NCBI GenBank assembly: GCA_977018835.1
Contig: OZ361257.1
Coordinates: 1,116,001 to 1,180,000, forward strand
Length of the DNA: 64,000 bases
Source: Minutocellus sp. GHC0000111
Taxonomy: Eukaryota
Direction of reading: 5' to 3'
The notes under the pieces were generated by a model, which saw only the letters and a list, made by a program, of their open reading frames with translations, did no database searches and was not told the origin of the DNA. The first letter of the stretch is position 1; each line of letters starts with the position of its first letter. Made by a program: the position numbers and the translations under genes. Below are positions 10,201 through 60,077 of this stretch, piece after piece.

Positions 10201-12422
10201 TTATGCCTCAACGGGCTCTTCAACCTTCTTCGCGGCAACCTTTTGTGCGACACCAGCGGGGAGAGCACCGCAGTCAATAGCATCAGACATGTCCTCAACG
10301 AGCTCTCCGCTGTTGTTGTAAACCTCGAAAGAAAGAGGGAGGAAGTAATCGGATTCGCCCTCGGGAGTCTTGACCTGGACACCACCAAGGACGGCAACCT
10401 TGCCATCGGCGACACTTCCGGCACCAGTGGTGACAATCTCGTCGACCATCTTCTTCTGGGCATCGTACAGAGCATAAGGGAGGTCAACCATCTTGTCCGA
10501 AGCCTTCTCGAGGTGCTCGGCATAGGGGAGGAGCATGGTACCAACAAAGTTCTGCTGAGCATCAATAGCAGTCTCGGGAGGTCCGTACTTGGAGGTCTCG
10601 CCGGAGTGAACGCCCGAAACGTATCCCGAAGCGGCGACCGCAGATCCACAGCAAGCACCACCGTTGGCACGGCCACGGCGCTCGACGGTACCGACCTTGC
10701 CGGTGGAGTCAACACCAACGTGGGGACCGAAAACAACAAGGCAGGAACCGCCATCGGGGATGTGCGAGGCCATGGCGCCGAAGGCGGTCTTACCGCCGAA
10801 GGGGAAGCCAGCAAGGCCGCCCATGCTGAAGTTGTCGTTGTAAACCTTCTTGAAATCGTCCTCGAGGACGCGGTTGACCTCATCGGCGCAGAGGAAGGTG
10901 GCAACGAGAGAGTTGGGTCCGTATCCGTGCTTCTCGAGCTTCTCAGCGACGGTGGAAACGAGGTCGGCGTTCTTCTTCGCCTTGGGGAAGTTGGTCTCGA
11001 TGGACTCCTTCATGGGGGTGCTGAAGGGGAGCTTGCCAACGCCAATCTTCTCACCAAGGTTTTTGGCCATGGATCCGTCGTTGTTGTAAACCTCGAAAGA
11101 AAGAGGGAGGAAGTAATCGGACATACCAGCGGGGGTATTGACCTGGATACCACCAAGGACGGCAACCTTGCCATCACCGGCAACGTTTCCAGCGCCAGCC
11201 TGGACGATGGTGTCCATGAGCTTCTTCTGGGCATCGTACAGAGCATAAGGGAGGTCAACCATCTTGTCAGCGGCCTCCTCAAGCTGCTCGGCATAGGGGA
11301 GGAGCATGGTGCCAACAAAGTTCTGCTGAGCATCATCGGGGGTGGCGGGGGGACCGTACTTGGAGGTCTCACCGGAGTGAACGCCGGCGGCATAACCAGA
11401 GGCAGCGACGGCAGATCCACAGCAAGCACCACCGTTGGCACGGCCACGGCGCTCGACGGTACCGACCTTGCCGGTGGAGTCAACACCAACGTGGGGACCG
11501 AAAACAACAAGGCAGGAACCGCCATCGGGGATGTGCGAGGCCATGGCACCGAAAGAAGTGATACCACCGAAAGGGAAGCCTATCAGATTTAAATTTTTGA
11601 CAAAAGAAAATGTGAACATTGTTAGATGAGATTAGGACAAGAAAACGAGAGGATACTTGTGATATTGTCGCAACTGTAAATGTGATGGAACACACATGAC
11701 AATGACGCGTAATTGTGCATGCTTCCTTTGGCCAGAATGTAAAGATACCAATCGAAGCTTCGAAACGTTTGTTTCAACAACAAATGTTACATAACATAGA
11801 CATTCAATAAGGATCGTGCAATTGCCAAAATATGCACATCTACCGGTATAAAAATGAACTCACCAGCGAGACCACCCATGCTGAAGTTGTCGCCGAAGAC
11901 CTTGGAGAAATCCTCCTCGAGGACGCGGTTGACCTCATCGGCGCAGAGGGAGGTGGCAACGAGAGAGTCCTTGCCGTATCCGAACTCCTTGAGGGCCGAG
12001 GCGACCTCGCTCACGAGCTTCTTGTTGGACTTGGCACCGGGGAAGACCTCCTCGATCTTGTCGACCGTCTCGGGCATGCCGGAGACAACGTCGGGGAGCT
12101 TCTCGAGGAGCTTGTTGGTGGCAACGCCAGCGGCGAGGGCACCGGCACCGACGGTGACGATGTCCTTGACTCCCTTGGCGGACTCAACGGCGGCCTCGGC
12201 GGCACGGGCGGCGGGGGGGAGGCCGGAAGTGGCCAGAGCGACGCCGCCGACGGCACCGGCAACCTTCTTCGCGACCTTGAGGGCGGCCTTGCGCTTGGCT
12301 CCGTTGGCCATCTCCAGCTCGGTGAAGGAGGCGCGCTGAGTACCGGCGGCCATGTGCTGGGGGGCGAAGGCCGAAGCCGTGCCGAAGAGGGAGAGGGCGA
12401 CGAGGGCAGTGTTGAGCTTCAT
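10201..12422 (-). CDS. Theta-type carbonic anhydrase (two tandem LCIB-like domains), plastid/thylakoid-lumen targeted; intron 11580-11863
   Basis: Signal peptide plus ASA-FAP, then a basic/hydrophobic AxA lumen-like segment. Each domain has the LCADE, GPHVG and ACCGS Zn-ligand motifs. The GTGAG...TAG intron restores GGLAGFPFGG. Confidence 0.93.
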
Positions 12423-31069: not shown

Positions 31070-34000
31070 TTAGGTCAAAGATTTGCTCATGAATTCTTCG
31101 TATGCTCCTCCAAATAATCTACCAATGTCTCGTCTGATTTCGCGTCGTGTAGGGCTCCATCCAGATTGAATCAGTCGCGTGTATTCTTCTGAGAGAAAAG
31201 CCGCGATAACTGCTCGGCTGTGTGCCCACTTGTATACCAATTGATCTAGCACTCGCGCGTCACTGTGCTGGGCCGTAAAGGATGTGCCTAGCATTTCCAC
31301 CCTCATCGCCGTGATTCTCTTGATGAGCGATGGGTTATTCGAATACCACCAACACCCATAGATGTGAAGGTTTCGAAACTTGGATGCCAACACACACGCC
31401 TCGTGCTGATTGTTCATCGAAAGAAATGTGGCAAGGAAGCGAACCTTGGGATATTTGGAGCAAAGGCGAGCCAAAACGTTGCCATCGGCAAATGCCACGA
31501 TGCCATCGCCTGCCTGACGAAGCTGTGGATTGACTCCTCGATGGGCACCAATCTTTAGTGCCAGTGGAAGATCTCGCTCTTCACACACCTTCATCAGTAC
31601 TTCGCTCAAAAAGTCATTTTCCTTTTCATTGATGAGACTTGCGATCGCGGCGCCTTCCCCGTCGCAAGAAGACGAGCAGGTAGCGTCCGACGTAACAGCA
31701 TCGACAAAGGCAAATGGTTGCTTCATGGCATCTTCGTTGACTCCAGTCATGTTGAAACCGGAGAGACTTCCTTCGATTCCATTCCTAAGCACAAAATCAT
31801 GAGGCGTACTGGCCATCATGTACTCAGGCATCATCGTGTCGCACCAATCTCTCAAGTACTGTCTCGCGCCTTCAATGGTGCAGTCGTATCCGGATGCCTT
31901 CAAAGCAATTTCAATCGTCGCGCGGTCTCCAGCAAGTAAAGGGTCTACGCGTAGAGCAGATCGAAATTGGTCAGGATATTCCTGAGGAAATAATAAGCAG
32001 AGAAAAGAGGCAGCAAGTACGTGAGAAAAAAAATCCATTCGCACATTTCGGCAGTGTACATGTAGTGCCATTGGCGTCCACGTAGATTGATTTCTTACCT
32101 TTCTCTTGGGACGCCAGTATGCTGCCTCGTTGGCATCAAATGGAATATTTGTCATCACAGCATACTTGACACCGGCTTGCTCATAAACCAGCTTACAAAA
32201 CTCCTCGGTACCACAGAGGCCCTTATCCCGAAATTGTCGATAAAAGATTCTAATGCCATCAAGATCGCGAGCCTTGACCTCCTTGGCCAACCCAAATGAA
32301 GAGAGCGTCGTGATTACTCCTCTGCAAGCTTCTGATATCGGTGAGCGTTCAATAAAGAGAGCATTCCATATAATATTTGCCTGCTCTTGTTTGCTTTTGG
32401 AGTAAAACACTTCCGGGGTCATTTCTGATGGTGCTGTAATGAAGTATTCAGCAACCAGATAGTGGTACGTGAGAAGCTCATCTATCCCCCAAGAACATAA
32501 TATCCCATGGGAAGGAGGAAGCAAATGTGTGTGCAGATCAACCACCATCGCAGCACCTACCTCAGCTGTTACCACAGACGCAATATTCTCGGTGTTGGTA
32601 CCAATGGTAGCTCCAAGAAGATTGCTGCCTTCTGGAATTGCTCCTTGACGATAATGAAGAGGAACCTGGCCACCAAATTTCTCCGATGAAACGCCGTCGA
32701 CAAGAGCCTTGCAGTCAATCGAAAACCCGATGCCATCTAATTCTCTGAGAATAGCCAACATCCCGTCACCAGCTACCATCCGGGCGTAAAGAGTTGCAAC
32801 AGCCATGGAAAAATTGTTTGCCGATTCCCCACATTCGTCATAGATGTCTGCTAAATTTCCTCCATCATCCGCCGAGAGGTAGGATTTGATTGTAGAGAGA
32901 TATTCCACGGGCTGGCTTGGTTCGCTTGAGACACTGAGAAGCTCACATATGGGCCGTGCTTTATCACCGCAAGTACAGGAGCCTCGGAACTCATACCAGC
33001 CTTCAGCGAGATTGTATCGGAGCCCGTCTGCATACATGACCACTTCATCGTTGGAGGAATCGCTTGGGACCATAGCGACGCTTTTTCGATCGAACCCATC
33101 TAACCAGCCACGATAAATGTTATTGTCAGGATCATCATCTGGCTTGGCTGGGGTCAAGAATCGTAGTATAGCCGCAATGGCGAATACTGTAGTGACGGTA
33201 ACAATTTGATTGCTTTTGATCAAGTCCCGAATGGTTGGACCGATTCGGATACCCCCTTTGGCGGCTCCGTTTTCGGTAATGAAGAAAGTTGATAGGCCAA
33301 ATTTGGGATGACACAAGCGCCGTCTCCAATCCTCGTAGACCAATTCAGTTTCTTCCTTGCCAAATTGAGTTGAAGCCGCAGCCAAAATCTGATCCGCGAA
33401 GTACGAGTCAAGATAATTCATCAAAATTCCAGCCTTTTCGTCGGTTTTATCCTTTGCCAATATGTCCGTCATTAGCAAGGACGACAATGCCATCACATGT
33501 GCGGCCGCTGTATGTGTTCCATTGGCAACGCGTAGCTTTAGGGCAATGTCGCCATCGAGCTGTCCTGATTTCGTCCTGACGACGACACCATACTGCGATT
33601 TGAGCTCTGGTGATGAAAACTTCGCAGGCAAATGCGCACCCAAATCTTCGATCACCAGTGCCTTGCTCGGTACTGGCTCACATCGCGGCACCATTCCGTT
33701 AGACCCATCGCGTTGAGATGTAATGCGATCCACCATGGTGTTGTGAAAAGCCACTTTATTTCGAAGAAACTCGTCAAACGAGGCTACCGAATGGTCACTG
33801 TTGGCGATCTCCAACAGATACTTGCGAATAACTGATCCATTTCCTGGAACATTGTCGGTGTTCACCACACAAACTTTCCCATTTGGGTTAGGGCACGTCA
33901 GAGAGCCGGCGGTGAGGAGAAGGGAAATCTTTTTCAAAATCGCGGCAAGATGAATTAGGGACTGTGATGTTGGGCCCGACAACCCAGCTTCGGTAACACC

Positions 34001-34470
34001 CACTCCAAGTATCGATATGCTGTGTGTAAAAGGATTGGTTGTAAGATGATGTGAGTGAAGGAAATATCTAGGCTAGATGCACGGACGCATCTCCACAAAG
34101 TCATGATTGCATGCCGTTCTCACCTCTTCATTTGATCCAGAACCTTCATTACCTCATCTCTTCCCTCGCCAGTGCCCAACGTTCCAGCACCCCAGCAATC
34201 AACCATCTGAGTGACAAAATTTCCGTCGTACTCCACCACATCCACCTCATACTTGAGCGGGGCATCACAATTTGCATCGCTGTCCTCCGATGCTTCATTT
34301 TCCGCCGCACAATAATCAAGAAATGTCCGTCCTCGCGTTTGGATGATGGCTGGTTTGTGACCGGCCGCGTTCAGCGCTGGCACAAGCACGGAACGGAGGA
34401 AGCGACCGGAACCGATGCAGAGGCAGTCCACCTCACTGGGCGACGGGACAAGGGACGATTGCGTTGGCAT
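31070..34470 (-). CDS. Fusion of a mannitol-dehydrogenase-family (uronate reductase-like) domain and a uronate isomerase; introns 34020-34123 and 31982-32098
   Basis: N-terminal CIGSGRFLRS, GVGVTEAG, NTDN..NG, FHNTMVDRIT, KLRVANGTHT. C-terminal DLHTHL, WGIDELLTYHYLVAE, YGCWW..NNPS, QHSDARVLDQLVYKW. Confidence 0.85.
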
Positions 34471-34854
34471 TTGGTCTGGGTCAGAAGAAGAACTTTGGTG
34501 ATGAATTTGGCACGAGAACAACGAATTCTGCGTCAATGGAGGAATAATAGAGAAGAATTTGCGTGTCGTCGAGGATGCAAAAATAATCACAAGATGAGTT
34601 CGATTGGGATGAGACGGGAAATCAATAAGATAGGAAAGGTGCTCTACTTTTGAGGACCGCGCTCTCCTGCGACGTAGTTGGGGCGTAACAATTCAATCTC
34701 TTCCCTTGAAGTAGTTGACGACTGACGATGGGGAATCTTTTGCTCGATCTTGAATGAATCCGCCCCCCGCTATTCGCTAGCTGACGGACAGACGTATTAG
34801 CGGCATTAGTTGGGCGCAATAAGAGAACAGACTAGACCAACCAGAACATCTATC

Positions 34855-36666: not shown

Positions 36667-37160
36667 ATCTAAATTACCGGTAAGATCTATCTACCGGTAG
36701 CTAGAGCTAGCCAAATTATTTGATATCGGTGCGGTAGTTGAGCAGAAGCAGTCATTCGTCGCCTACCGTACTCTGGGCCTATTGTTACAAGCCACTCTAT
36801 GGCTAGAGCTAAATTGCCTTTTCCTCCAGTTGGCCCGAGGTTTACATGTTGGGGAGCAAAGAGAGCCGAAGAGAGAAGAAGAAGAGGATCGAGAAGGAAG
36901 GCATCATCATGAAGGAGGGAGCCGAGTCGAGTCGAGTCGAATGAGTCGAGAGAACACTGACTCACAAGCCATTTTCCTCATGGCGAAAATGCCGCCAGAC
37001 TGACACACGAACCTCGTAGGCCTACATTGTACTCGTACGATGGCATGACCACCATCAGCGGCAGAGCGGCCCCATCAGCACACACTAGCTAGTAGCACTC
37101 ATAACCTTCACGAATAAAACGAAAAGGAGAGGCAAGTAGGCACCTGCTTCCTCCCAACCA

Positions 37161-40150
37161 ATGCCTCCTCGATCACCTTCATTCTTGCGCAAGTGTTGTT
37201 TGCCCCTCGTCATAGCAACTGTACTTTTCCTCCCAGTCCAGGCTTTGAGTATGGCGACCTCGAACCTACTTCACCGCGTTCGTGTTGAGCTCTTCTTCAA
37301 GACCAAGTCGGAGCTCAAAGATCGAGTGAAATTCCTTTGCGACAATGGCGTCACTGCATTCAATCTCGTGAACAAGGACAAAAAGGATGCGTTGGAGGAT
37401 TGGTGTGCTATCATCGCGGAGCAAGCGCCAGACAGCAGCGTTTCGTCTCACTGGTCAGTCAAGTACAACAAAGTTGCCGATCGAAATGGTGGCGACGATG
37501 CTACTTACGAGAAGTTCTCCTCCTTCGTCAATTCCATCGCTGGCGATGAAGTTCTCCTTATATCTGGAAGCGGAGAGAAGAAGAGCATGAATTCTGTGGA
37601 AGCTCTCAAACGTTTGCAGCAGGATCGATCGGTTCAGCCTCCACCAGATGATGCTGCCAAGATTTGTGTTGCTTACAACCCATTCTTTCCCAACGAATAT
37701 GATCGGGACGTAGAGAATGACCGACTTTTGGAGAAGTTGGAGAGCGGTCAAGTGAGCAAGATTTACTTTCAATTTGGAACTGACTTGTCACTCCTGCAGG
37801 CTGGGTTGGATTTCATTTGCAAAACCAAAGACGAGAAGGGGCTCGACGAGCTGGATATTTGCGGCTCCATATTTCTGCCCACAAAGAAACTAATCGCACA
37901 GCAAAAGTTTCGACCATGGAATGGGGTTTATCTCAGTGACAATTTCCTGTCGGGAGAAGCAGGGGCTAGAAATATCGTGCTGGATATGATTCGCATTTAT
38001 CGCCAATACAACGCTGAGTTATTATTCGAAGCTCCGGGGATTCGTACTGAGAAAGATTACACAGTAATGACGGGCCTGTTAGCGGAAAGCACTGGGGTGA
38101 CTGATAAATCCGAGACACCAACAAAGAAGGCGCCAACAGCTGGTCGATCCAGGGGACGAGGTTCTTCAGAAACATCTACCGATGAGCCGCCGACTAAGTC
38201 GAAGAAAGTCAGAAAAACGAATGCAAAGGACGCAAATGAGCCGAAATCAAAGCAAAAAACAGAAGATGACAAATCCACTAACAACGATCGCACGCTTCAA
38301 CCGTCGCCCCTTGTTGATATAGCGAAGCTCTCTTCGCCTTGTATTGTTCTCTTCGGTTCGCACGATGTTCGTTTACATGACAATCGTTGCGTCGAGTATG
38401 GATCTTTCCACTCCACTGTTATTCCTGCATTTTTATGGAATAAAAAAGAACAGGGTCAATGGGGTGTTGATGGGGCAATGCAAGTGATATTGAAAGCTGC
38501 CTTGACCAGCCTCGATGAGAGGCTCAAGGACAATGGAATTCAATTGATATGTCGCAGCACCTGTACCAATGATGACTCTACGGACAGCTTCTTCGCTTGT
38601 GCAAGGAAACAGGCGCCTCGGTCGTTTATTGCAACATCGAGCATACGCCGGAGGACAATGCAAGACTCGAACAGCGATCAGAAGTGCTATCAAAGCATGG
38701 TATCCAGCTCGTTAGATGCAACTCAAGTCTTCTCTACAATCCCGCCGAACTCAATTTAGGAACCGGGTTCAATGGTGGGCACTTTGCTACGCTGATGCCT
38801 TTTCTCAAAGCTTGCAAAAAGCAATTTGGACACCCAACTAAGCCTTTGCCTAGGGAGGAATCTGCTTCATTGCTATCAAAAATAAAAGGACCACGAAAAT
38901 GGCCTGCAGACTGTAAGGTTGAAGATCTACCTTTAGCAATAATCAGCGGCCGCGAACGATGGGACAAGCCGATTTTAGATCGGTTCCCGATGAACGAAGA
39001 TAGCGCCAAAAGTCTTCTCGATCAATTCATGGAAAAAGGACTTACTCGTTATGAAAGCGAGAGAAGTCGAGCGGACTTGGAAAGCAGCACGTCCCAACTA
39101 TCGGCTCACTTACGAGTTGGAACACTCTCACCATATGATTTGTATTGGGCCACCGAGCAGAGCAACTTGTCGTACGATGAAAAGAAGACTTTCTCTCGTC
39201 GGCTGTTTTGGAGGGATCTCGCGTACTTCCAGCTAAAGTATTTTCCATTCATGCGAGAGAAATCTATACGGCAGCACTATGAAGATACTAAATGGACTGG
39301 GCAAGAGGAAGGAAATAGACGCCTTGAAGCATGGAAGAAAGGTCGTACTGGTTATCCTCTAGTAGATGCAGGTATGCGAGAGTTATGGGCGACAGGATGG
39401 ATGACCCAAAGTGTTAGAATGGTGTGCGCCTCATTTCTCGTCGAGTACCTTAGGGTGAACTGGACCCGAGGAGCGGAATGGTTTCACTATACTTTGGTCG
39501 ATGCCGACAGCGCCATCAATTCAATGATGTGGCAGAATGCTGGTAGATCGGTGAGTTACTGTAGTTACTGTACAGTCGAGGAGGCCCAACATTATTGCAA
39601 TGTAATACTGTAGCGCTTTGGGTGGCATGATTTTATGCGTTTTGACGTACTATTCCTACTTTTGCAGGGCATCGATCAATGGAATTTTGTCATGAGCCCC
39701 GAAAATGGGTCCCAGGATGCCAGCGGACAATATGTTGCAAAGTGGGTACCGGAAGTTGCTCTATTACCCAAGTCAAAAATACACAAGCCTTGGAAAGCGA
39801 GTGAAGACGAGCTGCAAAAGGCCGGTATTATTTTGGGGGACAATTACCCGCACAGGATTGTTGCCGACCTCAAGGCCGAGAGAGAAAGAAGCGTCGAGGC
39901 TGTCCTCGACATGCGCCGCCAGCATCAGCAATGGAATGATGGCAATGGTTACGATATTATTCAGTTACCATCTGGGGACAAAACCAAGGTCTTTACCAAG
40001 AAAGAATATCGCATCGATAGATTGGTCTTGTTATGGAAATCGAAAAGTCTGGTCGCGAGAAGGCAAAGGCTCGGGCTGGAGGACGAGGTCGTAGTGGCCG
40101 TAATGGTGGCGCAAAGAAGGGCAAAAAGAGCAGAAAGTAAAACGAATTAA
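37161..40150 (+). CDS. Plant-like cryptochrome (CryP-type)/photolyase with an N-terminal MTHFR-like domain; intron 39551-39667
   Basis: DVRLHDN, SQLSAHLRVGTLSP, RRLFWRD, WKKGRTGYPLVDAGMRELWATGWM, TLVDAD.AIN..MWQNAGRSGIDQWNF; apparent indels near 38585 and 40020. Confidence 0.9.
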
Positions 40151-40173
40151 TGAATTTAACTAAAGGAAATTCT

Positions 40174-43100
40174 CTACTTTCCACCGCCTCCAGCATTTCT
40201 ACTCCACTCAGAGGGAAGATCAGATAACTTTACACTTTCGACTTTCTTCTCCGTTTGGAGTAGCTTCCGCAAGAAAGGGTAGCTGCTTACGCCTTTCGTT
40301 GATTTCAGCGACTTCAAAGATTCAGCGCTTAGGTTTCCTGTTTCGCAACACCATTTGAACGTACTACTCAGAAGCTTTTCGGCCTGTTGCTTGGAATCCA
40401 CCGAGTTGGCAATAACCCTGAAAAAGAAAGCAAATGTAAATTCATCGGCTGCCACTCCACACCTTTGGTTCCGAATATCGGCGAGGGTTTCAAGGGCACA
40501 CCTCAAAGCCGCTTGCTTTTCTGATTTTGACCGACTGCTGTGTAGAGTGCAACAGCGTATTACGGAGTTGAATGAGATGATGTCGGGTTTGACCCGTTCG
40601 TTGCCTTCCTCAGTGTTCTGCCTGATCATTTCGTTGAGTATTGATCTGGCCATGTCAGCATGGTATCCACCAGTCTGGCGACCAAGTGTCCGAAGAACTG
40701 CATTGTACGTGAGAAGATCTGGGGCCACACTGGCATCGCCTATTCTCTCGCAAGTCTCGGTCATTTCACGAAGTAGCTCCACTGACCGCAATGCTGCTCT
40801 ATCATCATTAATCTTTGAATATGCGTTGATGCAGGTTGTGTACGAGGTCAGATTCGCGAGAAATCGAGCGCCCGGTTTTTGACTGCTTTCGAGGGGATTG
40901 AAAAGCGCCTCGAAGAATAGTCATGCTGAAATATTTAAGAAAATGGCTATTTTTACTCTAATTTTGATTTATCTTCATGTGAAACAATAATTCGGATAAG
41001 ACTTTAGATTTCAGCGGCTCTAATCAAATGGACGCTTTCGTCGCACTTGGACCGGTATACTGCTTCCCAACGAGTGCCGATGATTCATCTGATTCGGCCG
41101 CCTTCCGTTCTGTCATCGACGATCTTGCAACGGCGACCCGGCGGTATACTGCACCATGTCTCTTTGCAATTGCCAAGTGCAGGGAGCAGGCAAAGGTGGA
41201 CTATTCGGTGCTGTCCAGCGCAGAGCATGGTGCACGATTTTCGGGATGGATGAAGGCGTATGGTGCTCTACCTGCATCTGAGAAGGCGATGTGGGAGATG
41301 AAGAGGAGATCTCATCTGGCTATGCAGCCATACATTCGAGATGTTATTGTTGATGCTCTGATACGAAATCCTCGGGAATCTTGGCGGGAGCTGGAGGTGG
41401 ATGTCAACTTTTGGTGATCCTACTCGGCAATACGGCGGTGGATAATGTCGCGGGAAGGGTTCCGGTACTATGCCGAAAGGATCATCCCTCTCCTTACTAC
41501 ACATCAGATGGAGAAACATTTGGCATTTGCGCGGAAATTCCGAAACAATTGGGGGCTCGGCGGTGGCAAGTTTCTCCTTGTTATGTTCGATGAGAAGTGG
41601 TTTTGGGGCTTGGTTCTTCGATCGTATGCCAAGCAAGTTGCAGAATTGGGTATTGATCCTCGGTCCTTCTCGGCATATCACCGAAATCACATCAACAAGT
41701 GCATGGTGGTGGCTGTCACTGCCTTGGCTTTTATTGACAGCATTGAGAATGGCGGCATTGCGTTCAAGCTTGGACTTTTTCGGGCTCAGGCGCATAAAAT
41801 TGCGAGGCAGATGGTAAGGGAGGCGGTGCGGCAGGCAGATGGTAGAATCAAATATTGCGGCCCGGTGGTTCGGAAGAAAGACGATCTACACCTTGTGGAT
41901 TGCGCGGTGACTGGATGCAGCCATGGCACCCTTGATAATCCCAAGTTCCCACTGAAAGCTTTGTTTGAAAACAAGATATTTCCGGATGTTGAGGCTTTGG
42001 TCGGACCTGGCGGAAAGTTTGAAGGCTATGTCCCTATTTTCCAGGGCGACAATGCTGGGCCCCATGCCGAGACTGAATTTGTGGAATATGTGGAAGGATA
42101 CTGTCGGGACAAGGGATGGCGTTGGGAACCTCAGGCCCCGCAAATGCCCCATATGAATGTTCTTGATCTGTCTGTTTTCCCTTGCATGTCAAAGCAGCAT
42201 GCAATGTTGTGCCGCGATCGGGAGGGGCTGAAGGTTTTGACAGAGGATCAGACTTGGGATGCAGCGGAGGAAGTTTGGATGGGGCTGGAAAACTGGAAGA
42301 TCGCATCGGCATACATCCAGGCTCATAGAATTGCAAAGAAGGTAATCGTTGCAAAAGGCAACAATGATTTTCTTGGAAACGGTGAAGGCATTCATGTTGG
42401 GGTGCGAAAGGATTTCAGGCCGACTGAAAATGGCATGGTTCGGATAGATGGGAAAATTATCGCTCCTCCTCCTGCTGATCCAACCATGGATAATTAGTCC
42501 TGCGGTGCTTTTAAGTTATATTGTGTTTAATAATACTAGATTGGATTGTAGATCTGGATACTAGCTGCTGCAATACATGTACTTTGCATTGTACATGTAT
42601 TCAATGCCGGTAGATCTAAGATTCAGGCGGTTGCGGGCCCAAAAAGTCGCTGTTTTGGTCCCGACCCTGCTCGTAGGTGATGCGATCCGGAGCAATAGAT
42701 TTTTCACCAGCATTCGAAATTCTCTTCATTTCCTGCAAGAGATTGTCGGCCTTCTCAGCTTCCGCGATGGTTGTTGCTCTCTTGCCGTGAGCACTTATGA
42801 CAGAGTTGTAGGTAACAGTAGTGGGTCGAACATCTGGCATACCGGATGCGTCCAGTTCCGACATCAACCGCAACATGTCTTCCGCCCTTTCCTTCGCGTC
42901 CGACTCCGTCGACCTACCGAGACACTCAATGACGGTTGTAAAACTGACAAAGTTCGGCTGGATCTTCTGCTTTTGCATTGAGATGAGCATGTTCTCCGCT
43001 CGGTGCGGGGCGTCCTTTCGACCGCTATTCGTCCAGGCAGCCAGACAAGCATTGAAACAAGCCACAGTCCGCTCCACCCCCCTGTCTTTCATTTGTTGTA

Positions 43101-44100
43101 AAATGACATCGCATTCAATTGGTTTATCCTCTCTTTTTATCGATTTGCTCCTCACAAAGGCCTTCAGCAAATGGTAGTATGTGACGGTATCGGGCTCCAA
43201 GCCGACACCCTCCATGCGTAAGATGAGCCGCTTCACTTGTTCCGGCGCATCGTTGCGATCGGAACTCGCCCTCAAATCTGCCATGATATTGTACGTGATG
43301 TCATCAAAAGGCAACTCATCTGTGTAACTCGTCGATGCATCGCCGTCTTTCATCTTGGCAAGCCCCTCGAGGCCCACCCTTATTTTGTCCAGTTTCGTCG
43401 CGACAAATTTTTGTACCGCCTTGCGATTTTTCTTGTTCTTGTTGCATCGGACGGCAGTAGAGAGAAGCCTATTGACGAGCAGTGCCTTGATCTTTCCTTG
43501 TACGGTACCCTCCTGTTTATCCCTGATGAGCTCGAGAAGTAAGTCCGCGGCCTGGAGTAAGGCTCGAGCATCATTGCTGGCCATATTCGTTTTCTCAGTG
43601 ATTCTTCCATGCAGTCCCTTGCCTCGCTTGCGCTGCTGCTGCGATGGACTTGAGTCTGTCGATTGAGGGGGCTCAGGCATGGTGTCTGTGCTTATACTTC
43701 CCGGCTTTGATGATTTAACATTTGCCACAGGGCTGCCCGTGTCTGCTTGCAACGAAGTAGTTTCACCAACGATGCCTGGAACTGTGCCGTCTGTGCGAAC
43801 GACCGTTTCTCCGGAAAGGCGAGGAGTGGCGTCATTTGCGCGACAGGTGTGTTCATACGCCGAATCCAGAGCAGCAGTCGATGAAAGGAATCGATGGCTG
43901 GAACGAAGCGAGGGAAACAGTGGGCCGCTGGAGGAGCCACCTCTGCACGGCGGCAACCTCCGTAGCCGATCCAGGTCGAAACTCTGCACACGGGTTGCGG
44001 CCTCATCCTGGCCGATAAGTGCTCGAGGCCTTCTCCTATTCAGGAGGTTGCACGAGGACGCCCTCATTGCTTGGCGCCCCGAAACAACAAAAGGCAGCAA
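40174..44100 (-). CDS. Pentatricopeptide-repeat protein interrupted by a transposon (coding 42674-44100 + 40174-40840)
   Basis: Many PPR motifs. Removing 40843-42673 and one TA restores IAPDRIT-Y-TTCINAYSK in frame; terminal LPSEWSRN motif. Confidence 0.9.
40843..42673 (+). mobile_element. IS630-Tc1-mariner DNA transposon, 1831 bp
   Basis: TA duplication 40841-40842 and 42674-42675; ends CGAG...CTCG; boundaries independently fixed by restoration of the PPR frame. Confidence 0.92.
41028..42497 (+). pseudogene. Mariner-like transposase (DD38D spacing) with one premature TGA at 41415-41417
   Basis: ORFs 41028-41417 and 41445-42497 share a frame; VMFDEKWFWG, QGDNAGPH, WEPQAPQMPHMNVLDL; FW*S aligns to GWCS in the other element. 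Confidence 0.9.
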
Positions 44101-44325
44101 TAGAAGGCGGCCGTGGCTCTACACTGTCTACTAGCTACGTAGCTGGTGCCTATAAACACGGCCGGGAGGCAAGAATCGCTTGCATCGCAATCGCGCGCAT
44201 CGCCGTCTTTCTTTCGGCCATGGCTGCCAGCTCATCGCGCTCCTTTGAAAATAGGTCTTTCCGTCTCACGTTCACCAGGCGATCGTGAGCCATGCTCATA
44301 AAAGCAGAGACTGAAAGGCGAGACG

Positions 44326-51219: not shown

Positions 51220-54200
51220 TTACCTTCTACCTCTCCTTCCGCCACTTTGGGACCGTCTTCGGCCGTCTCCACCTCCAGGGCCTCCGGGACCTCGTTCCCA
51301 GTCACGACCACGAGGTGGCCCATCAGGCCCTCGGCCCCGGTCCCAATCTCTACCACCGCCACCTTGAGGACCACCACCGCCGCCGCGATTGGGAGGCGAG
51401 GGGCCTCGCCCGACATTGCCTTGTGGATGGCCTCCTCGTTGGTTCTGTTGACCACCGCCTCCGCCGCGTCCACCTAGAGCCGATCCGCGACCGCCTGAGC
51501 CGCCGCCTCTACCGCCCGGACCGCCTCTACCACCAGCTCCACCCCCTCTTCCGCCACTGCCATTGTTCCCTCCCCTGGAAGGATTGTTGTCTGTTTTGGC
51601 TTTCTTTGCCTCCTGTTGAACTCTGGCATCCTAAGATTCTTTTTTGTCCGTTTCATCGATACTATCGGCTTTCCTTTTCCTGCCCCGATTGTTTTTCTTT
51701 TTCTTCTTCGCCGACTTATTGCTACCCTCTTCATCGTCTTTCTCGGCTCCACTTGCCACGGTCTCCTTGCTCTCCTCTGCACCGCTAGTCCCAGCATTGC
51801 CATTGTCATCGCCAACATTGCCACCGCCATCAGCTATGAGTCCCATTTCTTGAGCAATCTTCTGAAATTCCGTCTGTTTGTCTTCCTCACTCTTGATGAC
51901 TTGCTCCTCATCTTCATCCATTGACCCATTTCCAGGTTCTCCAACGCTTGGTGCATCCTCTGTACGAGAGACGTTCACATCTACCGCTTCCTCGTCACTC
52001 TTCTTCTCACTCTCGGTGGCCTTCGAAGCCTTAGCCTTTGTGGAAGCCTCGGCCTTCTCTTTGGCTTTTAATTCATCGAAATCGACAACTTCTTCCACCT
52101 TAGGTTCATCTCCAGGAATTGTAGTATCCTTGTCTACCTTCCAGATCGATCGAACGACGCGTTCGAAATCTCCGTCTTTTCTACGAACTTCTCCAAAGCT
52201 ACCCAGATGGTCTCTGGCAAGCAGTCTCATGGCTCGCCAAGCGAAAGGCTTATCGTTGCGTGGGTGATACTCGGCTTCAATGCCATTTTCAGGATCCAGA
52301 GCTTCGACATATTCCTCAAGAAAGACTGAAAGAGGCGGAACGCATTCTGCCATCTTTTTAGCAATTGAAGGAACATCGTTCTTGACATCGAGCCGGTACG
52401 AGTACAAGTCCGACGGACCCGCTGCCGACGAGGTTAGATCGGCGGCTGCTCCGCCTCCTCCAAGTGGACCCGACATCATGAGCCTCCGCCGCTTTCTCTT
52501 CTTGGCCTCATCGGACTCGGCGTCATCTTCTTTGCCCTTTTGCACACCGAATGATTCGATATCGGGCTGACATTTGTTGGACTTCCACTTCCTCCACATG
52601 GCCTCCCTCTCCGTCAGTATCCATTCAATTGTCTTTAGATGACTGGCGCCGTTGGGAGGTGTCTGTCTCATGAGGACTTCTGCCCGCTTTCGGATAGCCG
52701 CCAAGGCCCGGACGATTTCTGTTGCCTTGATGACCTTTGGGCCATTCGTCGCTATAGTAGACGAAAGGTAGGACGCCATGATGAGAAGCTGGGTTAAGAA
52801 ATGAAGTCTCATCTCTGGGTCACGGAGCTGCAAGTGAAGGAGCTGGCTGTTGGTAAGATACTTGAGATGTTGATCAGAGGATGACGAGTTTGATGCGGAG
52901 GTGGCCGTCCCACTTTCAGATGAAGGGTCTACTACCATCCGTAGCTTGCTGGCTTGGTATCTGCATTGAGTGTTGTAGAAAGAACGATGTGTTGAGATGT
53001 GAACAATGTGAGTTTACGGTCGCTTGAGAAAGAGAGCACGAGATATAAAGAACCCCTTGCCAAGAACACCGGTATTTCCAGCTACATACCTCGACTTGCT
53101 CTGTCGAACTACCTCGTCGGGAAAAGGCCGACCCTCCAACGCCGTCAAGACGGTCCGAACATCCCGAACAAAGTCCATGGCGGGCTGCGCATTGAAAGCC
53201 TGTGCAGCAGCCGCGGCAGCTGCGGGTGGAGCCTTACCACCGCCGGCGGCCGCACCGCCAGATGAGGCGGACCCGTCCTTGATGCCATTTAGAATAATAC
53301 TGGGGTCGGTAAATTCCTTCTGCACTCCCCAGAACGTCTTGTAGAAGGGATAGTCCACCGATTCGGCATCCTCCTCGTCGTGTCCCCTGTCCTCCTTCTT
53401 TGCATTCTTCGTCGCCTTCTGGACGGCGGCATCATTCTCCACGGCCCCATCTTCCGTGCTCCCGGCCCCATCGGCGCCAGCACTCAGCGCATGCTGCAGG
53501 AAGGTCTCTTCGTCCTCAAAGTCGGTAATGTTCGCTACGTTGAACGTCCCCAGAACATTGACGGCCGACCGCTCGCTGAGGGGGAAGACCTTGGCCAGCA
53601 ACGTCATGACGCTGCCCGCAAATGCCGCATCGCGGTCGCGGTTCGACAGCTTCCGCAGGAGTTTGTTGCACAGCTTGAGGAGGAGGAATTGCGACCCGCG
53701 CTGGAAGAGGTTGGCCGTAGGCTTGCCGTCAGGAGACGACGACGACGAGGAGGAGGAGGAAGAGGCGGCAGCGGCGAGATCGGCGATCCAATCGGTCGGG
53801 CCGGACGTCCAGATGGTCTTGAGGATGGACGGGGGAAGGGCGTCAATGGTATCCTCGAGGAGGACGAAGGGGAGCTTGCGAATGAAAGGATGCGCCATGC
53901 CCTTGTAACAAAGAGGTGGGGCCGATGAAGCAGAGGACTCATCGCTCGCATCCAACGCCTCGGCAAGCTGGACCATGTGCAAACACAAGTCGATGGTCGA
54001 ACGAAGGCACGCCAAGACGGCGGCCAGGGCCGAAGAGGAGTCGGAGGTGTCCATCATGTTATCGGCGGCGCCGTCATTACTCCCCGAACCGCCATGAGCA
54101 TTGAGCAGGCCGGACGCCAGCGTGAGCAAATGCCCACGCACCGAAATCTCCAATTCATCGATGCGCTGCCCGGCCGTCGTTTCGACGTCGGAAGCGGAGG

Positions 54201-56284: not shown

Positions 56285-59200
56285 TCATTCTGTTTCCTCC
56301 GAAGGATCTTCCTTTGTATCATAGTCCTCTGCGAAATTGACGACCCGATTGATTCCTCGAGGCTGTTCATCCCGAAGCAAGAGCTGTAATTTGGGGATGC
56401 GGTCGGAAAAGTTGGTCATGAAATCGGTAGCAAGCTCCTCTGTCTCGTCAAAGGTGAAAAGATTGATATCGACACGGGTGTCTCCGTCCCACGCCACGAC
56501 AACGGTGCCCTCTTCCATGACGGCGGCTGCCATGGCGCCATCACCAATATCTTTTTCGACCAACGTGACGCCTTCGGTGATTGTGTACCCCATCGCTGCG
56601 ATAGTCTCACTCAGCGCCTTTTCGATTGCAGCGCTCGAAGTTGACGGACCCCCTTCTTCGATATTCAGCTGGAAGACAGTCTGACGACCAAATGAATTCT
56701 GGCTGACATACTGCATTAGAGAATCTTCGAGATCATAGTCATCCTTCCTGAAGTACTGAGGATTGAATTCATTTTGAGCTTTGACCAGAGCACCTTGAAC
56801 CTTTCGAACAACAACGTCAAGGCCAGAAGTTCGCTCTTCAACATTCTTCGCAACATCTTCCAAATGGATGAAGAAGTCGGGATCCTCGGTAGAGAGAATA
56901 CCAACCTCCATCATTTTGTCAGAGCTCGAGATGACTAGCTCGGCGGCAAACATGGGATCATAGATGAGAGCCTTTCGCACTCTGTCAATCAAGTTATGCC
57001 TCTTGCGCCAGGTGTCCCGATGATCTGGCATCAAGCTCACGATGACAAAGTGGTCCGTCAATAGCTGGAAAAAGTTTCGCTGACTACTCCAGATACTGGA
57101 GGCAATCTTGAGCATGGTGACGGGCGCAATGGGATCGACAACGATGGCACTAATGCCTCCCTTGGAGGTCGCAGCTCGAAGGGCGACAAGGACCTCTTTC
57201 TCGCATTGCACCATGAGATCACCAATGTTCTCGGAAAACTCGGAGGCCGCGGCGAGCTCGGGACACGTGGGGATGAAAATGACCTCATCGATGCTCTTAT
57301 GGCGAGATACTGCGTCAAGGCTCTTGCAATCTTCTTTGGTTGGGCCACACAGGACAGCAGCCAACGCACCATCGCCTTGAATTAGATTCAGGGTTTCGTC
57401 CATAACGATATCGTTAGTTTCCTTGCTGTTCAAGTCACCCTCCTTGACATAGTCCACGCCGTCACAGCTCCGCGTCTTCTCGATAAGAGGTCCGATCGTT
57501 TTGTGGTCCTCGTCCCATGTGCTGGTTCCCGTCATACCGCCGGTAACGATTCGGTACGAAGACAAGGAGGAGTGATCACTGCCAAGAGCCTTCACAAGTG
57601 CATCACGCAGCTGCTCCATCTTATTGAACGAAGACCAAAGATGAATGTCCAAGGCACAGTACTTTTGATCGGGCCAGACGCGGACGGTAACATGACCTTC
57701 ATTCATGGGGATTACGGTTGAAACCGCATATTTACCTGGCGACTTGGTGTCGATCGGGTTCATCCCTTCGCTCTGAAGGACTTGGACGAGTTTGGAAACG
57801 AGGCTGCTGAATGGCTTGAGAGGGACGGTGGCATTCTCTACTTCTGAAACCATTAGGATAGCCGATCGACCTGTCATCTCTTCGTCCGGTTCGGATTCGT
57901 CGTCATCGCATTTTCCTTGTTCCAGTGCGGAGGTTCTCCTGTAGTCATGGAAGAGCTCGAGAGGATGATTCTCAATGGGCTCCAACAGCTTCGTACCAAC
58001 ATTGTGATCCTTGCGCTCATGGTGAAGGAAGTCGATGGCATTGCTGCCCAGAACGACGACCTGGTCACAAATGATGGGAAGGTCCGGTCGGTAAATCTGA
58101 GCAGTGTAGTCAAAGAGCTCGCTGAATTTCTCCAAATAAAGCTCGTTCTTGACCATGATACCACCGGGTCTGAGAAGGAGGGCCAGGGCATTGAAGACGT
58201 CAAGCTTCTTGTTGACGGAGAGAGACATCACGGTCTCAGAAAGGTCAATGAGAACCAGATCAAACGAGCCGAAATAATCACGAGGGAGCATCAAGAGACT
58301 CTTTGTGGCATCGCCGAACCACCATTCGACGCGTTCGTCGTCGAAGTGGGGCTGCGTGTGGAAGTACTTGAAGGACTTACGGACAACCTTCTGATCAAGT
58401 TCGAGGCCAACGACCTTTTCGATGTTGGGGTACTTCAACGTCTCATACAAAAGCATCGAATCACCACCACCGACGAAAATGACACGTCGAACATCGTCAA
58501 GGTACCGAGCTGCAAAGTCCATGTTGTATTCATGATAGTGCGGGCGGTAACTGGAACAAATTTGGACCACATCATCAAGGTCAAAGCACACATCGTCAAT
58601 GTCCTTCTTTTCCACATAGTTGAGAGTCTGATAAATCGAATCGAGATTTTCCAGGTGGTCGTAGTCCTTGAATTGCATGATGTCCCGATTGTCACAAGTA
58701 ATGGGTTTGTAGTACTGCCCATCGCTCTCGTCGTAGTAGAGGTCATCTTTCTCGTCATCAAGAGGATCATACCCATCCGACGCAGAACAAGACTTGTCGG
58801 AAGCGTCACACGGGGCATCCAGATCTGCTCCAGGAGTGGCCTTGAGGGCCAGTCTCATTGCGTTGACCAGGGCATCCACGTATTCCCATAGCATATCCAG
58901 TTCGTAGGGGTCAACTGCAGTATTCTCAGCCTCGAGCTTCTTGAGTCGCTCGAGACGCCAAATCTCCTTTTTCATGAACGAAATGGATTCCTCAGAAAGC
59001 GTGATGCCCTTGGCGAATGTCACAGCGGTCTTATCGGGGGACCCCTCTACCTCCTTGAGGTCAAAGGCAAACCGACGCCCAGCAAAGATCCAACGTTGAG
59101 GGAACTGCTCAACGAAACCATAATCGCGAAAGATATCTGTGTGAATGGCGGTGTAATGTCGAAAAAAAAAGAATCGGTGTAAGAAGGATGAGGACGGGAA

Positions 59201-60077
59201 GTAGAGATGCGACGAGATGTATTTTTTAATTGATAAAGGAAAAGAATGGACAAAGCACAAAACATCCCAAACATGTTGTGAAACCACAACACTTACCGGG
59301 AGTACCGTAACTATTGGCCCGGCCACCACAATTGTTGCACATATTGTACGAGTTGTAGAGCTGCTCTCCTTTGGCAATGTCCCGCTTGGCCGTGAGGTAG
59401 AACCTCTTTCCTTCTTCGCGGTTGTTGTTAAGATTATGATACTGTCCGTTGCGATGCGAGTACATGTCGTAGAAGGGTATCATAAGATCATCCTCCGCCC
59501 GCTGCACCACAAGCAAGGCCGCCTGTTCGTCGAGGGGGTCGGTAGAGCCGTTGCAGTCCTCCCTCCAGTCCTCCTCGAGCCACGAGACAGGTTCCGATGG
59601 GGGCAGTTCCTCTCCTAGGACCTCCTTGAACAGTTCCTTGCCCGCCTCCGACCAGGCGGAGGGGAGCTCGCCGGCCCTCTGCTTCATCAGATAATTGGTG
59701 TAGGGGGAAAAGTCGGAACCGTCTCCCTTGCGCATTTCGTTGGCAAGGCGACGGGCGGTATCGCATACCAGCGGAGGGGGGTCCGTCACCCGATAACCGG
59801 CATGGATGATGGTGTCCCACGGAATGGACACCAGAACCTCGCCCTTGGCAATGTCATCGGTGGCAAACACACCCAGGACCGAGTTGGGATCGCTCGGCAC
59901 TTCCCGACGGATTTCTTGATTGGGATTAAACTCGGTGCCCTCCCGTCCTTCGAACCATTCAACCAGTTCCTTCACTTCCGGTGCATGTTCGGCATTGCAC
60001 ACAGATACCGTTGACGAAACGGCCAAAATGGCCGCTGCGAGGAAAAGCTGGGTGCCCCGAGGAAAGTAAATCTGCAT
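56285..60077 (-). CDS. Signal peptide + SET domain + aminopropyltransferase + two degenerate AdoMetDC-like domains; intron 59137-59296
   Basis: GVFATDDIAKGEVL, PFYDMYSHRNG, GEQLYNSY, YGTPDIFRDYGFVE; RPHYHE, VIFVGGGDS, VVGLELDQ, WFGDA; EGHVTVRVWPDQKYCALDIHLW; EGTVVVAWDG...VDINLF. Confidence 0.9.

Follow-up and report, generated by a model that had tools for sequence, protein, structure and literature searches.

Does a single gene of Minutocellus sp. GHC0000111 join an enzyme-like domain to a photoreceptor and, if so, what might that domain do there? The question was raised by an earlier note on the 64,000-nt stretch of DNA analysed here (the window), which had claimed an in-frame fusion of an MTHFR-like barrel to a plant-like cryptochrome.

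Gene structure and frame breaks at the locus

The ORF list of the window contains a stop-free frame that spans 37140–38759, whose ATG at 37161 opens a chain encoding, in this order, a leader, a 276-aa domain, a basic linker and the start of a photolyase domain. In translation, the leader is hydrophobic (..FLPVQA-LSM), the 276-aa barrel domain holds VLLISGS and ICVAYNPFFP..ENDRLLEKLESGQVSKIYFQFGTD, and a Lys/Arg-rich linker followed by IVLFGSHDVRLHDN is read in the same frame as the barrel. To this point the claimed fusion stands. However, while PF00875 matches aa 400–467 of the barrel-frame ORF (E 3.9e-7), this frame holds merely ~80 aa of the photolyase region, as the earlier note had overlooked: the FAD-binding domain sits at 38576–39613, in a frame other than the barrel's, and what remains resumes behind a 117-nt intron at 39668–40021. 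All five fused homologs tried in tblastn split into two HSPs, one in frame 3 to ~38579 and one in frame 2 from ~38585. The window sequence is one base short at ~38583 and again at ~40021, so the Lys/Arg-rich C-terminal tail of the earlier note exists and is typical of homologs, but lies behind this second slip. Due to the frame change at ~38583, the assembled ORF stops at 38759 without an FAD-binding domain. An intron does not repair this slip, as the listed GT..AG pairs shorter than 140 nt all remove sequence that homologs need. The window copy is frameshifted and cannot make the FAD domain as assembled (Table 1).

Table 1. Coordinates of the gene's parts, with the evidence for each
Feature	Position in window	Strand	Evidence and remarks
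Signal-peptide-like leader (aa 1–30), then a second Met (aa 31, 37251) just ahead of the barrel	37161–37250	+	Translation; hydropathy rule
Predicted MTHFR-fold (β/α)8 barrel (aa 37–312)	37269–38096	+	Predicted model, Foldseek, VIA, hhalign
Basic low-complexity linker with NLS-like clusters	38097–38339	+	Translation; second haplotype lacks one base at 38209
Photolyase alpha/beta domain start, in barrel frame	38340–38582	+	PF00875; second haplotype lacks two bases at 38416
One-base frame slip; out-of-frame ORF reaches stop 38757–38759	38583–38585	+	ORF list, tblastn
Rest of photolyase homology and most of FAD-binding domain (WRDLAY, MWQNAG, Trp triad, Asn at N378 position)	38585–39550	+	Pfam, alignment
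117-nt phase-0 intron, GTGAGT..TTTGCAG	39551–39667	+	Sequence; RNA contigs examined show no splicing
Exon 2: FAD domain end and conserved C-terminal extension (GYDII..VFTKKEYRID)	39668–40021	+	Pfam, alignment
Second one-base slip; homolog-typical Gly/Lys/Arg-rich tail in shifted frame, stop 40138–40140	40022–40140	+	Frame analysis; X15 contig 39844–40300 with 0 gaps

Are the breaks genuine? Four of 18 sequencing runs were examined (X1, X2, X5 and the DNA-like X15). No indel is listed for the X15 contigs at 38583, in a bin of depth 208, and one contig (39844–40300) crosses 40021 with 0 gaps. The X15 contigs further reveal a second haplotype with breaks of its own, one base missing at 38209 and two at 38416. 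A protein from a different public contig, P0059, has the 38209-shifted tail, and the truncated product of the window's own gene is P0468; together with the X15 breaks, these imply that both haplotypes would make the barrel plus a tail and no FAD domain. All this speaks against assembly errors at ~38583 and 40021 in an organism whose copy of the fusion is intact, a reading that concerns this copy only and that we consider rather unlikely. In its favour, X15 may itself be what the assembly was built from, making the support for the breaks not independent, and the variants look as under recent selection: among the 39 coding variants within the 40 listed of 91, barrel codons comprise 5 synonymous and 5 non-synonymous changes and cryptochrome-frame codons 12 and 12. 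These ratios suggest that selection acted on both halves until recently and that the breaks are young. Contigs of X1, X2 and X5 tile from the barrel through the linker to the photolyase start—record 23 of X2 covers 38135–38396—and none of them crosses 38397–38614. As two of these contigs contain intron letters, a DNA origin is possible, and the junction in transcripts is not supported by them.

The window holds several other genes of note. Between two minus-strand PPR ORFs (40174–40920 and 42616–44118), plus-strand ORFs at 40983–42497, which we take to be DDE-transposase-like, gave no Pfam match and no terminal repeats; they are perhaps an insertion in one PPR gene. At 31070–34692 on the minus strand, a mannitol-dehydrogenase-like Rossmann domain (PF01232) precedes a long stretch with no Pfam match that presumably resembles uronate isomerase, making a two-enzyme fusion possible. 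A spermine/spermidine synthase fused to an AdoMet decarboxylase (56285–59479, minus strand) is an arrangement expected for diatom long-chain polyamine synthesis. The minus strand also encodes a member of the LCIB/C carbonic-anhydrase family in which two segments match (10201–11631), and the stop between two THOC1 halves (53014–53016, minus strand) falls inside an ordinary GT..AG intron.

Fold and residues of the barrel

The extra domain had been described as MTHFR-like, and the predicted model, Foldseek, VIA and hhalign agree on that fold. Residues 37–312 model as an eight-strand (β/α)8 barrel (predicted structure; pLDDT 95.4, pTM 0.92), for which the listed Foldseek matches, ranks 1–44, are all MTHFRs (best E 6.1e-10). 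VIA, which covers Foldseek's matches and is a second look at the same set, placed Thermus MTHFR on top (Z 20.2, rmsd 3.2 over 244 residues), with E. coli MTHFR at 19.8 and FAD-dependent MTHFRs at 18.8–20.2. FAD-independent Mfr scored below these (17.0–18.2), next to 3IJD, an MTHFR-fold protein that simply binds methyl-THF (17.5), luciferase-like barrels (16–17) and an unrelated barrel (15.5). Atlas rows for the barrel against Mfr (0.87–0.88) serve as leads only. Alignment to a MetF profile of eight sequences with hhalign (E 3.8e-5) supplied the residue register. Sequence-only tests failed: Pfam returned no PF02219 match over the cut-off for the window barrel or for 45 and 54 family members, phmmer and two profiles searched against the PDB did not detect the MTHFR relation, and hhalign against E. 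coli MetF alone gave a probability of 0.3; one weak NCBIfam match was obtained for P0277 (E 0.007). The comparison with MTHFR proposed in the earlier note hence held for structure search and profile–profile comparison, the only approaches to link the two, and not for PF02219. The barrel is predicted to have an MTHFR fold, as distinct from being a proven MTHFR.

In this register, Glu43, His97, Gly136, Glu185, Lys192, Gln204 and Phe250 correspond to E. coli MetF E28, H88, G119, D165, K172, Q183 and F223, and Ser137 occupies the D120 position (Q183 and F223 placed by hhalign, E28 by the VIA range offset, where model 1 = chain 22, and the strand 1 pattern). We take H88, R118, G119, Y152, H156, D165, N168, R171 and K172 to be the FAD-contact residues of MetF. 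Across 235 near-complete barrels (105 fused, 130 unfused or unknown), the E28 counterpart is kept in 211 of 213 non-gap sequences, Q183 in 221, F223 in 205, H88 in 221, G119 in all 235, the D165-to-Glu exchange in 234 and K172 in 224. The seven positions are 87–100% conserved, equally in fused and stand-alone barrels, as for an enzyme under selection, and six of them fall among the 36 columns conserved to at least 90%. The D120 column, by contrast, holds Ser in 161 sequences, Gly in 52 and an acidic residue in only 2 of the 235, which tells against plain MTHFR identity. Further changes relative to MetF are R118 to Ser/Thr, Y152 to Asn, S26 to Arg, N168 to Arg, a changed R171 and a gap at H156.

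According to passages of PMC11868366 and PMC11094777, E28, D120, Q183 and F223 are essential catalytic residues of MetF and D120N drops kcat to 0.3%; three of the four are kept in the barrel and Asp120 is lost. A passage of PMC3156243 adds that D120N impairs the folate reaction and spares NADH-dependent FAD reduction. The Ser-His-Glu triad described for MTHFR in part of PMC9900621 is not kept either. Compared with MetF/MTHFR (PF02219; 1ZP3, 8EAC, 8UY1), the barrel thus shares the fold over the whole domain (Z ~20) and the seven counterparts, whereas it differs in overall sequence (10–17% identity), in having its own FRPWxG motif and in its cryptochrome partner. With Mfr (PF19345; 7WMZ, 8BGR), which functions without FAD in the accessible text of bioRxiv 2022.11.18.516900, it shares the fold, the Glu and Gln and the lack of an Asp120 equivalent in sequence; in mycobacterial Mfr, Glu55 fills that position (passages of PMC11868366 and PMC11094777). 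Unlike Mfr, for which Z is lower (17–18), the barrel keeps the His88, Gly119 and Lys172 counterparts and lacks a conserved acid in its beta-2 loop (N-x-x-N-K). Judged by its residues, the domain would work as an MTHFR-like redox barrel for pterin and flavin, but one defining residue is missing and we do not class it as an MTHFR.

The cryptochrome half and the fusion across algae

A plant-like cryptochrome had been named as the partner, and both relatives and motifs bear this out. The closest solved structure is the class III photolyase 4U63 (E 2e-72), followed by plant cryptochromes; no NCBIfam cut-off is reached. In the available part of PMC9498864, the pl3 motif MWQNxG marks 100 of 103 PCRY-like proteins and 0 of 2144 others, with pl2 (WRDLAY) in 83% and pl1 (VGLR) in 74% of the subfamily and not obligatory. 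The window encodes MWQNAG and WRDLAY (pl3 and pl2 being present in 79 and 74 of 86 fused homologs, respectively) and no VGLR (1 of 86). On two of three motifs, this half classifies as plant-like and PCRY-like (CryP-type). With residue roles assumed in E. coli numbering, the FAD site is retained: of the 86 homologs, 86, 86 and 83 keep the Trp triad, 86 the Arg and 84 the Asp of the Arg-Asp bridge, and 84 carry Asn at N378. At the substrate positions of class I/III CPD photolyases, presumably E. coli M345 and W384, Met is kept in 85/86 and Asn stands in place of Trp in 83/86; E274 is Arg in 86/86. The Met and Trp positions are tabulated in PMC7560933. As judged by these columns, the cryptochrome half is without CPD-repair residues. 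Two Trp that align to the antenna site of 4U63, where we assume them to have a role at MTHF, are invariant (86/86). Passages of PMC13769073 and PMC8591175 report that 4U63 holds MTHF at a site of its own and that PtCryP binds FAD and MTHF.

The class III CPD photolyase 4U63 (Agrobacterium PhrA) is the best solved relative and shares this Trp pair, but differs at lesion-binding positions (E. coli E274 to R, N341 to Q, R342 to S, W384 to N). Phaeodactylum tricornutum CryP, likened to the window protein by motifs, has WRDLAY, MWQNxG, a ~70-aa C-terminal extension and Asn at the flavin N5 position in common with it; the passages of the review on CryP give a PHR plus extension and no N-terminal barrel. 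In a full-length model of the homolog P0003, both domains are predicted with confidence, the linker between them is disordered and the C-terminus forms an ordered hairpin; the pTM of 0.69 does not decide barrel–cryptochrome contact. The C-terminal extension is itself conserved (GYD, VFTK, RI; P0003 aa 857–895, window 39940–40021) and is modelled as this ordered hairpin, unlike the usual disordered tail.

The dual targeting suggested in the earlier note drew on a signal-like leader and a basic C-terminal tail. Of 77 homologs whose leader is at least 20 aa long, 62 have a hydrophobic stretch followed by a Met (hydropathy rule), and an NLS-like cluster is found in 66 of 86 linkers, which vary from 35 to 168 aa in length. 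Predictions of dual targeting in diatoms rest on a signal peptide combined with a Met further downstream (passages of PMC4494062). Leader, second Met and basic linker may accordingly be read as giving one plastid-side and one nuclear form. In the open ocean, plant-like cryptochromes belong to the chief blue-light sensors that protists transcribe (passages of PMC8017926 and PMC9498864).

A survey of the fusion, as the earlier note had proposed for diatoms, found it conserved and widespread in marine algae. All 56 proteins of 841–2400 aa that match the barrel carry both PF00875 and PF03441. Conversely, searching with the C-terminal cryptochrome region of P0003, the barrel was present in 94 of the best 120 of 169 cryptochrome matches (95 with a shallower profile), a count that leans towards fused forms because P0003 is itself fused. 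Several fused homologs are complete transcript ORFs. The constant order in 56 of 56 long homologs is more than chance, and together with the other two observations it rules out a chance joining of two adjacent genes. Sources include the diatoms Odontella, Cylindrotheca, Nitzschia, Thalassiosira, Amphora, Seminavis and Pseudo-nitzschia, the cryptophyte Guillardia and a cluster with Symbiodinium members. Among the 26 close cryptochromes with no barrel match, 25 have no more than ~150 aa ahead of the photolyase region and one carries another domain; some are cut gene models, others genuinely unfused. In both trees (FastTree), fused forms are intermixed with unfused ones; deep support is weak and cut gene models are many, and we claim no origin or donor from these trees. 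One tree neighbour of the window protein is labelled Odontella, which, like the LCIB, PPR and spermine synthase–AdoMetDC genes of the window, indicates a diatom. In a Pseudo-nitzschia-like branch (support 0.68), a fast-diverged fused barrel (P0141, P0148, P0165) stands beside a conserved stand-alone one (P0067, P0085, P0088), suggesting duplication and fission.

The architecture, with its unnamed MTHFR-fold family, is apparently undescribed. Our literature search found no description of a barrel–cryptochrome fusion; the primary CryP papers, beyond its reach, may mention an N-terminal extension. In the accessible text of the algal cryptochrome review PMC8591175, the dualchrome is the only fusion named and MTHFR does not occur, and the available part of a 2025 review has no passage bearing on the fusion. 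Dualchrome DUC1, a phytochrome–cryptochrome fusion, likewise joins an algal cryptochrome and a second cofactor-type domain in one chain, whereas the second domain here resembles an enzyme and the architecture is shared by several algal groups, as against a single picoalga for DUC1.

What the tethered barrel might do

As CryP binds methenyl-THF and most of a folate/flavin site is still present in the barrel, folate connects the two halves most economically. The window holds a frameshifted copy of a conserved fusion; we favour, tentatively and at somewhat below an even chance, the reading that the tethered barrel is a flavin-dependent folate oxidoreductase turning over the photoreceptor's folate antenna pool. 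The kept His88, Gly119 and Lys172 and the Asp165-to-Glu exchange would let the barrel bind flavin, and the kept Glu28, Gln183 and Phe223 would let it bind pterin and do chemistry, while loss of Asp120 and the Ser-His-Glu triad may mean that a related step replaces the housekeeping reduction of methylene-THF. Photoreduction of the folate cofactor has reportedly been described and yields methylene-THF; the most attractive step would be to re-oxidise or clear the methylene-THF that so arises from the methenyl-THF antenna. This reading sits poorly with the absence of Asp120, the changed or missing R118, Y152 and H156 counterparts, the lack of a Pfam MTHFR match, the long, variable, disordered linker, the 26 of 120 close cryptochromes with no barrel match, the many stand-alone barrels and the inability of the window copy, as assembled, to make its FAD domain.

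A bolder version, which we hold to be unlikely, would make the fusion an undescribed photoreceptor class with its own folate-redox enzyme: the barrel would regenerate photo-bleached methenyl-THF antenna, or the cryptochrome would switch the barrel so that blue light controls one-carbon flux, and annotated diatom CryP may be a rear half. In any case, a conserved enzyme-like domain unseen by Pfam is hidden in proteins annotated simply as photolyases, and the fusion offers a direct test of folate antenna supply or recycling, a candidate link from light to one-carbon metabolism and, for an unnamed MTHFR-fold family whose ~700 representatives extend into marine cyanobacteria-like genomes, an initial hint at function.

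This family comprises 706 representatives at E ≤ 0.001, many of them stand-alone. The stand-alone matches counted (73, of 151–483 aa) often end in a short basic tail, and diatom copies retain both leader and tail. Stand-alone barrels also occur in 14 metagenome loci (GC 22–28%, just 1–4 kb long) with no photolyase among the ORFs listed; common stand-alone forms and 0 of 14 photolyase neighbours imply that the barrel also works independently of any cryptochrome. Even in these cyanobacteria-like copies, a label based on GC and the Atlas taxon line, the catalytic Glu, Gln and Phe remain conserved. In six loci (L089, L090, L091, L094, L095 and L098), the gene immediately after the barrel encodes an NAD(P)-binding Rossmann oxidoreductase, and in four the barrel lies downstream of a nucleoside 2-deoxyribosyltransferase-like gene (Pfam-tested on one). 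The former six often have a uridine-kinase-like gene on the opposite strand. A pattern search of genome contigs gave no barrel relative, nor did phage and plasmid records, although this is weak evidence. A 64%-identical fragment of a barrel gene (L103:4920–5479) stands at the end of a viral contig that also carries DNA polymerase B and RecA-like genes; it may be a phage-carried copy, a provirus junction or a chimera.

The Rossmann neighbours fit a different role, in which the barrel is an NAD(P)H-to-flavin reductase, that is, the reductive half of MTHFR, fixing the redox state that the FAD of the cryptochrome has in the dark or adding a second light-absorbing flavin. The FAD reduction spared by D120N (PMC3156243, in part), the service of Gln183 and Phe223 to NADH as well and the several kept FAD-side residues agree with it. 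Such a reductase would leave the 99% conservation of the Glu28 counterpart, the proposed acid for folate activation, unaccounted for, and the P0003 model does not support a fixed domain interface; we rate it quite unlikely. We assign a similarly low probability to an independent enzyme whose fusion would only share targeting signals and light-driven expression and could be lost by fission. Its abundance as a stand-alone protein, the leader and basic tail kept by unfused diatom copies, the interleaving in both trees and the two haplotypes that preserve the barrel frame and break behind it would fit independence; persistence of the fusion from diatoms to Guillardia and a Symbiodinium cluster would not, and many 'unfused' entries are cut models, given the short leading regions of 25 of the 26. 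Returning to the folate oxidoreductase, we find it improbable that the barrel is instead a non-catalytic folate- or flavin-binding module (a sensor or extra antenna): loss of Asp120 and of the triad (PMC9900621, in part) and the match to the methyl-THF binder 3IJD would suit such a module, but the catalytic Glu, Gln and Phe are conserved as far as the cyanobacteria-like copies.
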